From NCBI RefSeq assembly GCF_058153355.1, contig NZ_CM177019.1: a DNA stretch of 64,000 nucleotides. One strand, 5' to 3'. This document shows, one piece after another, positions 1,865-2,105 of this stretch. Position 1 is the stretch's first letter, and each line of letters begins with the position of its first letter. Made by a program: the position numbers and the translations under genes. The notes below the pieces were generated by a model. It was not told the DNA's origin and made no database searches. It was given only the letters and a program-made list of their open reading frames with translations.

Positions 1865-2053
1865 GACAGAATGTAAGAACGTAAATTTATTCCGAGCAGC
1901 TACGGAAGATGAAAAACGCAAGGTTGTTGAAAGCGTTGTGTTTTTTTATGGTAGTGCCGTCAGCAGGAATGTTGTCCAGGGCGAAAAGCTTCTTCCTCGT
2001 TTCGCCCTGCCTTTCTTAATATTTCCCGTGAAGAATTTGCCCTCTGAATAACA

Positions 2054-2086
2054 CCCATAAAAAAACCCGCCGAAGCGGGTTTTTAC
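2054..2086 (-). terminator. rpoC intrinsic terminator (GC hairpin AAACCCGC-TTCG-GCGGGTTT followed by U-run on minus-strand transcript)
   Basis: Perfect stem-loop immediately 3' of rpoC stop with T-run. Confidence 0.85.
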
Positions 2087-2105
2087 GTTATTTGCGGATT
2101 AACGA

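Follow-up and report, generated by a model that had tools for sequence, protein, structure and literature searches.

Did this Escherichia genome lose the gene yjaZ from the stretch between rpoC and thiH, or did E. coli K-12 gain it? The question is raised by a stretch of 64,000 nucleotides from contig NZ_CM177019.1 (assembly GCF_058153355.1), called the window in the following, in which thiH and rpoC are separated by a spacer of 241 bp. In K-12, the same spacer is much longer and carries yjaZ. The original prediction for this locus had described it as shorter than that of K-12, a wording which implies that a gene disappeared from the lineage of the window. The comparisons presented here favour the opposite direction. 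The same empty spacer is found in other Escherichia species, which argues that the short form is ancestral and that K-12 carries an insertion. On this basis, the short 241-bp spacer is very probably the ancestral state of the genus Escherichia, K-12 being derived from it by the insertion of yjaZ and of the small RNA (sRNA) gene sroH, and the lineage of the window would never have had yjaZ at this place.

The thiH–rpoC spacer in the window and in K-12

In the window, thiH and rpoC are convergent and the gap between them occupies positions 1865-2105. The stop codon of thiH lies at 1862-1864, and thiG is found on the plus strand alongside it. At the DNA level, thiH of the window is 93.1% identical to K-12 thiH. 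The two genes and the three parts of the spacer, delimited by comparison with K-12, are the following.

731-1864, plus strand: thiH, the last gene of the thiCEFSGH operon; an open reading frame (ORF) of 377 codons, annotated as ThiH in matching genomes
1865-2026, plus strand: conserved thiH-proximal part of the spacer, 162 bp, present in both the short and the K-12 alleles
2027-2053, no strand: linker under no apparent constraint, delimited by junction mapping; replaced in K-12 by the yjaZ–sroH insert of ~945 bp
2054-2105, minus strand: 3' untranslated region (3'-UTR) of rpoC with the terminator of the rpoBC operon, shared with K-12
2106-6329, minus strand: rpoC, encoding the beta' subunit of RNA polymerase; an ORF of 1407 codons, identified from the annotation of matching genomes

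No yjaZ reading frame, intact or degraded, is present in the spacer of the window, as the original prediction had claimed. A tblastn search with K-12 YjaZ over the whole window gave no match in the spacer, the best one (E = 0.49) being at 6627-6719, recorded as in rpoC. This search had been proposed as one that could overturn the claim by uncovering a decayed frame, and it uncovered none. The segment specific to K-12, compared with the window by blastn, gave chance matches only. For sroH (Rfam family RF00372), no match at E <= 1 was obtained in positions 1500-2500, and a covariance model of our own, run over the full window, returned only a noise match of 12.6 bits on the rpoC terminator. Four approaches, namely tblastn, blastn, Rfam and our own covariance model, thus revealed no decayed copy of either gene, be it in the spacer or in the rest of the window.

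The ORFs lying fully within the spacer have 36, 37 and 32 codons, and the statement that none exceeds 40 codons was therefore correct, the longest reaching 37. The 36-codon ORF at 1909-2019, in which a Shine-Dalgarno-like GGAAG directly abuts the ATG, was considered as a small protein gene and rejected. It has no coding signature, as replacements at the first codon position account for three of the five sites that vary. A known RNA family was also rejected. The only matches were below threshold and driven by the terminator (rsmX, whose 31 bits fall short of the gathering score of 56, and leader families).

The K-12 locus has the same flanking genes in the same orientation. As had been stated, yjaZ lies there between rpoC and the convergent thiH. 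It is on the same strand as rpoC, and the ~180 codons attributed to it are 179. The distance from the thiH stop to the rpoC stop is 1161 bp in K-12 versus 241 bp in the window, a net difference of 920 bp. The window is shorter, as predicted, but not by one gene length, since 920 bp are missing and the gene measures 540 bp. The K-12 block comprises yjaZ, sroH and the promoter regions of both. K-12 YjaZ matches the NF007263 profile with 430 bits. K-12 sroH, of 161 nt, lies on the thiH strand and ends one base from the yjaZ stop codon. It scores 201 bits with RF00372, whose gathering score of 80 bits was taken as the threshold for membership. The GC content of the block is 41.5% versus 54-56% in the flanking genes.

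The junctions between the two alleles were mapped by following the homology between the window and K-12 from both sides. On the left, it extends to 2026-2029, and the first 162 bp after thiH have 4 differences. On the right, it starts at 2054, and the rpoC terminator and 3' end are the same in both. The breakpoints therefore fall at about 2029/2030 and 2053/2054. Between them lie 945-947 bp in K-12 (yjaZ, sroH and the promoter regions) and 24-27 unrelated bases in the window (2027/2030-2053). These bases have no counterpart in the K-12 block, and 120 of 1000 shuffled sequences align equally well. An alignment had been suggested as a check for a clean deletion. The flanks do match K-12, but the presence of 24-27 foreign bp at the junction, unrelated to the block, argues for a replacement rather than a clean deletion. 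A derivation of the 27-bp piece from one or the other end of the K-12 block, with later divergence, was tried and discarded; the local alignment was no better than with shuffles, and the pairing of 14 of 27 bases by MAFFT corresponds to the chance level. Terminal inverted repeats and a flanking duplication were looked for at the K-12 block, and none were seen. No recombinase gene is among its contents.

Ancestral and derived states of the spacer

Outgroup loci were reached through the ThiH protein cluster, by way of its members with the labels E. albertii, E. ruysiae and E. fergusonii. A scan of the genome collection with the rpoC 3' end as pattern gave two loci only, one from a K-12-like E. 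coli and one from Salmonella arizonae. In every one of the loci labelled E. albertii, E. ruysiae or E. fergusonii, the spacer is exactly 241 bp long and colinear with positions 1865-2105 of the window, middle piece included. Neither yjaZ nor sroH is present in any of these spacers. Compared with every E. coli in the set, the loci labelled E. albertii and E. ruysiae are ~92% identical in thiH and 96-97% identical in rpoC; K-12 and a strain of phylogroup B2 (uropathogenic E. coli, UPEC) share 99.2% in rpoC. This divergence indicates that the E. albertii and E. ruysiae loci represent distinct lineages. Within the set formed by the window, K-12 and B2, the short allele is common to the window and B2. 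The sites informative with Salmonella as outgroup place the window outside K-12 and B2 (23 versus 8 and 11 sites in thiGH, 10 versus 2 and 4 in rpoC). The polarity implied by the wording "shorter than K-12" would thereby be reversed, as the outgroup-labelled loci share the 241-bp spacer and the longer state of K-12 appears derived.

The window itself belongs to a divergent Escherichia lineage, ~96% identical to K-12, whose species labels conflict and for which K-12 is a poor reference. Over ~48 kb of mostly conserved genes, it is 97.3% identical to K-12 and 97.2% to the B2 strain, and K-12 and B2 are 98.0% identical to each other. It shares 99.8% with RefSeq "E. coli" 2020CK-00188 (1-kb query) and 98.9% over 11.9 kb with CP079891.1, a complete genome in which ThiH bears the label E. 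fergusonii. In both, the neighbouring DNA is 95-97% identical to K-12 (over 50 kb in 2020CK-00188 and over 11.3 kb in CP079891.1). A local introgression was considered for the divergent thiH and rejected, the divergence from K-12 (95-97%) holding over ~110 kb in the closest genome.

The distribution of both alleles was surveyed in 5426 complete E. coli genomes. The long K-12 block was found in 3741 of them, with K-12, B/BL21, E24377A, O111 and O157/O55 among the strains listed. The short form occurs in 1630, including the ST131 strain EC958 and other uropathogenic strains (e.g., UPEC_U013), with one common junction, over which the identity to the window is 96.8-100%. The short alleles of E. 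coli B2/ST131 and of the genomes labelled E. albertii, E. ruysiae and E. fergusonii resemble the window in length (241 bp), junction and hairpins. They differ from it by point substitutions only, which in the other species are concentrated in the 27-bp linker. The long allele is itself variable. In O157:H7 (Xuzhou21), a 71-bp deletion in the 3' part of yjaZ (within 1275-1400, K-12 numbering) leads to a 147-codon "HtrC", and sroH is intact.

The polymorphism as such was already known. A previous survey reported sroH to be absent from phylogroups B2 and D, E. coli ATCC 8739, S. flexneri and S. sonnei 046, and this absence was read as loss (Skippington and Ragan 2012, PMC3318445). The same presence/absence polymorphism of sroH was described there, but the survey was restricted to E. 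coli and Shigella, and yjaZ, the junction and the other Escherichia species were not considered. The direction is what is revised here, a gain being proposed instead of a loss.

Several strains suggest that the two alleles have been exchanged among E. coli lineages. In JNE151685, which has the short allele, the 3' half of thiH differs from K-12 at only 2 of 565 positions. Similarly, ETEC4070 (short allele) and O157 (long allele) have 3 differences in 565 bp of thiH. Short alleles standing beside a thiH nearly identical to that of K-12 or O157 point to a shuffling of alleles by homologous recombination in the flanks, and the comparison indicates recombination breakpoints within or next to the spacer. 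This shuffling probably accounts for the scattered "losses" of the 2012 survey (PMC3318445). The short allele of strain 2000-3039 has K-12-type bases at the left junction.

The exchange of alleles also opens the way to a secondary reversion, in which the lineage of the window once held the insert and regained an empty allele by homologous recombination with another Escherichia strain. JNE151685 and ETEC4070 show that such exchanges do occur. Nevertheless, the flanks of the window are uniformly 95-97% identical to K-12 over at least 110 kb and 98-99.8% identical to its own lineage, with no sign of a local import, and the insert is in no examined member of that lineage. A reversion is therefore considered improbable.

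A deletion fares worse and is judged very improbable. According to this explanation, the ancestor of the window lineage was arranged like K-12, and yjaZ–sroH then disappeared through a deletion of ~0.9 kb between short direct repeats. A search for such a repeat had been recommended, and one is indeed present near the ends of the K-12 block. It is an imperfect repeat of 11 nt (AAATTCCGTAA / AAATTCCTTAA), with 10 of 11 positions matching and its copies 910 bp apart. The published parsimony analysis, which called the sroH pattern a loss (PMC3318445), also speaks for a deletion. However, seven further chance repeats of at least equal quality occur within the same 1.2 kb, and if the block had been lost between the two copies, ~37 bp of K-12 sequence should remain, which the 27 bp of the window do not match. 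Moreover, 24-27 bp which are absent from K-12 could not be created by a deletion. Recurrent deletions would be expected to give differing junctions; the sharing of one junction by all 1630 short alleles argues against them. A loss is likewise at odds with the lack of a yjaZ remnant in the window and with the occurrence of this short spacer in loci labelled E. albertii and E. ruysiae. As for an assembly collapse or misjoin as the source of the short spacer, nothing was found in its favour, and it can practically be dismissed, since 1630 complete genomes, and several assemblies made independently from other species, have 241-bp spacers that are identical or nearly so.

An ancestrally empty spacer is not free of difficulties either. 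The species labels of the outgroups are NCBI names on identical ThiH proteins and not the result of a whole-genome comparison. Furthermore, with 98-99% identity to the window, the "E. fergusonii" loci belong to its own lineage and do not count as an independent witness. Recombination across the locus is evident, so local trees cannot be equated with that of the species. The entry of the block is not explained by any target-site duplication, att site or integrase, and its outer 146 and 114 bp, which are promoter regions, have no plasmid counterpart. The earlier classification of the sroH pattern as an ancestral presence followed by losses, made within E. coli and Shigella only, has to be set against a gain as well (PMC3318445). 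Finally, the comparison within the genus covered, besides E. coli, only loci labelled E. albertii, E. ruysiae and E. fergusonii.

The absence of yjaZ from the window is real but ordinary, as it belongs to a common presence/absence polymorphism of an accessory block. If the short spacer is ancestral, K-12 would be a misleading reference for this locus, yjaZ and sroH being acquisitions on the K-12 side, and the published reading as a loss would be reversed.

Hairpins, linker and cargo of the spacer

The three parts of the spacer differ in their conservation. Between Escherichia species, the first 162 bp (1865-2026) are 94-98% identical and the terminator part (2054-2105) is 96-100% identical. 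The 27-bp middle piece (2027-2053) is 63-81% identical, close to the rate of the third codon positions of thiH (80-85% identity). Judged by these identities, the linker appears to be the sole near-neutrally evolving stretch of the spacer. The RNA fold of 1865-2026 is more stable than that of shuffled sequences (z = -2.5). Three hairpins are predicted in the spacer.

1911-1946, plus strand: hairpin 1, from the minimum free energy fold; stem of 11 + 3 pairs, an A-run before and a U-run after it
1977-2009, plus strand: hairpin 2, from predicted folds; stem of 10 bp, loop of 13 nt, a T-rich tract after it
2061-2084, either strand: terminator hairpin of rpoBC (AAAAACCCGCCGAAGCGGGTTTTT), from the terminator scan; an A-run on one flank and a T-run on the other

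Hairpin 1 is a candidate intrinsic terminator of the thi operon, or it may protect the 3' end of the transcript. At position 1939, the loci labelled E. ruysiae and E. fergusonii have a T-to-C change which turns a G·U pair into a G-C pair, and this change, seen in two species, agrees with the hairpin. The inverted repeat of hairpin 2 is also present in K-12 and is invariant across every Escherichia locus aligned. Hairpin 2 may be a second terminator of the thi operon or, again, a protector of the 3' end. A simple terminator scan of the spacer called the rpoC hairpin only and not hairpin 1. With its two hairpins, but with neither a coding signature nor an Rfam match, the region 1865-2026 could be more than a terminator, e.g., a 3'-UTR element.

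The rpoC terminator hairpin starts 196 bp past the thiH stop, close to the 190 bp originally estimated. It consists of 10 pairs, 5 of which are G-C, and a loop of 4 nt. It can fold from both strands, the minus-strand RNA ending in 7 U and the plus-strand RNA in 5 U. Intrinsic (rho-independent) terminators are defined by a G+C-rich hairpin with a U-run behind it, and 2061-2084 has the sequence of one. The A-run and the T-run on its flanks predict termination in both directions.

The gap between thiH and rpoC is used in other Enterobacteriaceae as well. In Salmonella enterica, its cargo is a gene of the SseK/NleB effector family. In S. arizonae, low-GC genes and an IS4-type remnant are found, and in other genera cold-shock, phosphotransferase system (PTS) IIB/IIA or GGDEF genes. 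The window differs from these loci by having no cargo, and their inserts are unrelated in sequence to yjaZ–sroH. The occurrence of unrelated cargo at the same spot in other genera suggests that the gap between the terminators is a recurrent landing site. In S. enterica subsp. arizonae, the rpoC 3' end is repeated as a 36-bp copy ~0.9 kb beyond the true stop of the gene (locus positions 3516-3551 and 4433-4494), and this copy flanks inserted DNA. This copy looks like the scar of an element which integrated into the rpoC end and duplicated it.

A possible course of events at the Escherichia locus can be drawn from these comparisons. Two convergent operons would end in the spacer, the thi operon at the two conserved hairpins (1911-1946 and 1977-2009) and the rpoBC operon at 2061-2084. 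The thi hairpins and the rpoBC terminator would be separated by a linker of 24-27 bp in which no constraint can be detected. A low-GC block of ~945 bp would have taken the place of this linker in the ancestor from which a large part of E. coli descends (K-12, B, B1 strains, O157 and relatives). The block is made up of yjaZ and the convergent sroH, a pair which is also carried by enterobacterial plasmids. The entry may have occurred by illegitimate recombination, no repeats or att-like sites having been found. Both alleles would have persisted since then and would have been swapped between lineages by homologous recombination in the flanks. The locus would thus be a clean example of foreign DNA settling in the sole unconstrained stretch between two convergent terminators.

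The yjaZ–sroH pair on plasmids and other features of the window

YjaZ belongs to a small family without assigned function (NCBIfam NF007263, Pfam PF27200). Comparisons of YjaZ with defence-system profiles, phage families and phage records gave no matches. Its homologues are patchily spread, and the closest non-chromosomal ones (57-78% identity) are located on plasmids or plasmid-like contigs. In all of these, a homologue of sroH is found in convergent orientation, 1-7 nt past the yjaZ stop. Plasmids of Escherichia, Serratia, Enterobacter, Edwardsiella and others carry both genes together, and the core of the sroH RNA is present on ~100 plasmids. The K-12 block is 78.6% identical at the DNA level, over 688 bp, to an 88-kb plasmid of E. 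fergusonii; this homology begins 14 bp ahead of the yjaZ start and ends near nt 30 of sroH. An atypical GC content and homologues on plasmids are together a criterion for horizontal acquisition, and the insert shows both. A mobile origin of the K-12 block is likely, and the donor would have been a plasmid.

The RNA core of ~130 nt is predicted to form four hairpins joined by invariant linkers. Each hairpin is kept across variants, three of them by compensatory changes. The structure was obtained by folding each hairpin separately and was drawn by hand. It replaced an automatic consensus fold of the sroH alignment, which paired invariant distant segments and missed the variable hairpins. The resulting model reached beyond the enterobacteria. 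On a Vibrio plasmid, it gave a match of 55 bits directly upstream, on the same strand, of the gene for a YjaZ homologue with 36% identity, and a compensatory change was found in the first helix of this RNA. A weak match was obtained at the expected place beside a YjaZ homologue of Pseudomonas.

Several plasmids carry a relBE pair in place of yjaZ, between the sroH-like RNA and the gene of a tyrosine recombinase. An example of a slot bearing relE/relB is provided by the E. coli IncFII plasmid NZ_CP021538.1 (locus positions 2285-4598). A DUF2913 gene often adjoins the sroH-like RNA on plasmids. At another site of NZ_CP021538.1, a DUF2913 gene likewise lies beside a distant YjaZ-like gene (29% identity).

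Although the order and orientation of the RNA and the protein gene vary, the two remain neighbours on plasmids of hosts ranging from Escherichia to Vibrio. SroH and YjaZ thus look like a coupled, conserved RNA–protein module borne by plasmids. A more speculative proposal, to which we give a low probability, goes further. The window would be the pristine landing site of a mobile module, and the K-12 block would be a stranded plasmid stability or addiction-type pair, with SroH as an antitoxin-like or regulatory RNA partner of YjaZ, which might have a RelE/ParE-like fold. It is prompted by the adjacency across plasmids, the replacement by relBE at the same position and the four hairpins kept by compensatory changes. 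A K-12 sroH deletion is cited as viable in a passage of PMC5389530, which argues against a strong toxin in K-12. Both SroH and YjaZ are uncharacterised in K-12, and their pairing on plasmids offers a functional context that can be tested.

Other observations concern the remainder of the window and its relatives. In 2020CK-00188, arpA is a pseudogene and yjaA is present. Both the window and K-12 lack the citrate symporter and M20 aminoacylase genes found in the B2 strain between fabR and sthA. A segment of 3.1 kb between oxyR and argH (34760-37848) is absent from K-12 and aligns with a region of the B2 strain in which manD and a gene for an MFS transporter are found. The window also contains an IS4-family element of 1.4 kb (17625-19050), inserted where the ends of coaA and birA converge and absent from K-12 and from the B2 strain compared. 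It has terminal inverted repeats and a transposase gene of 448 codons (17691-19037), and it is flanked by a 12-bp target duplication, GAGCTAATGCTC, at 17613-17624 and 19051-19062.
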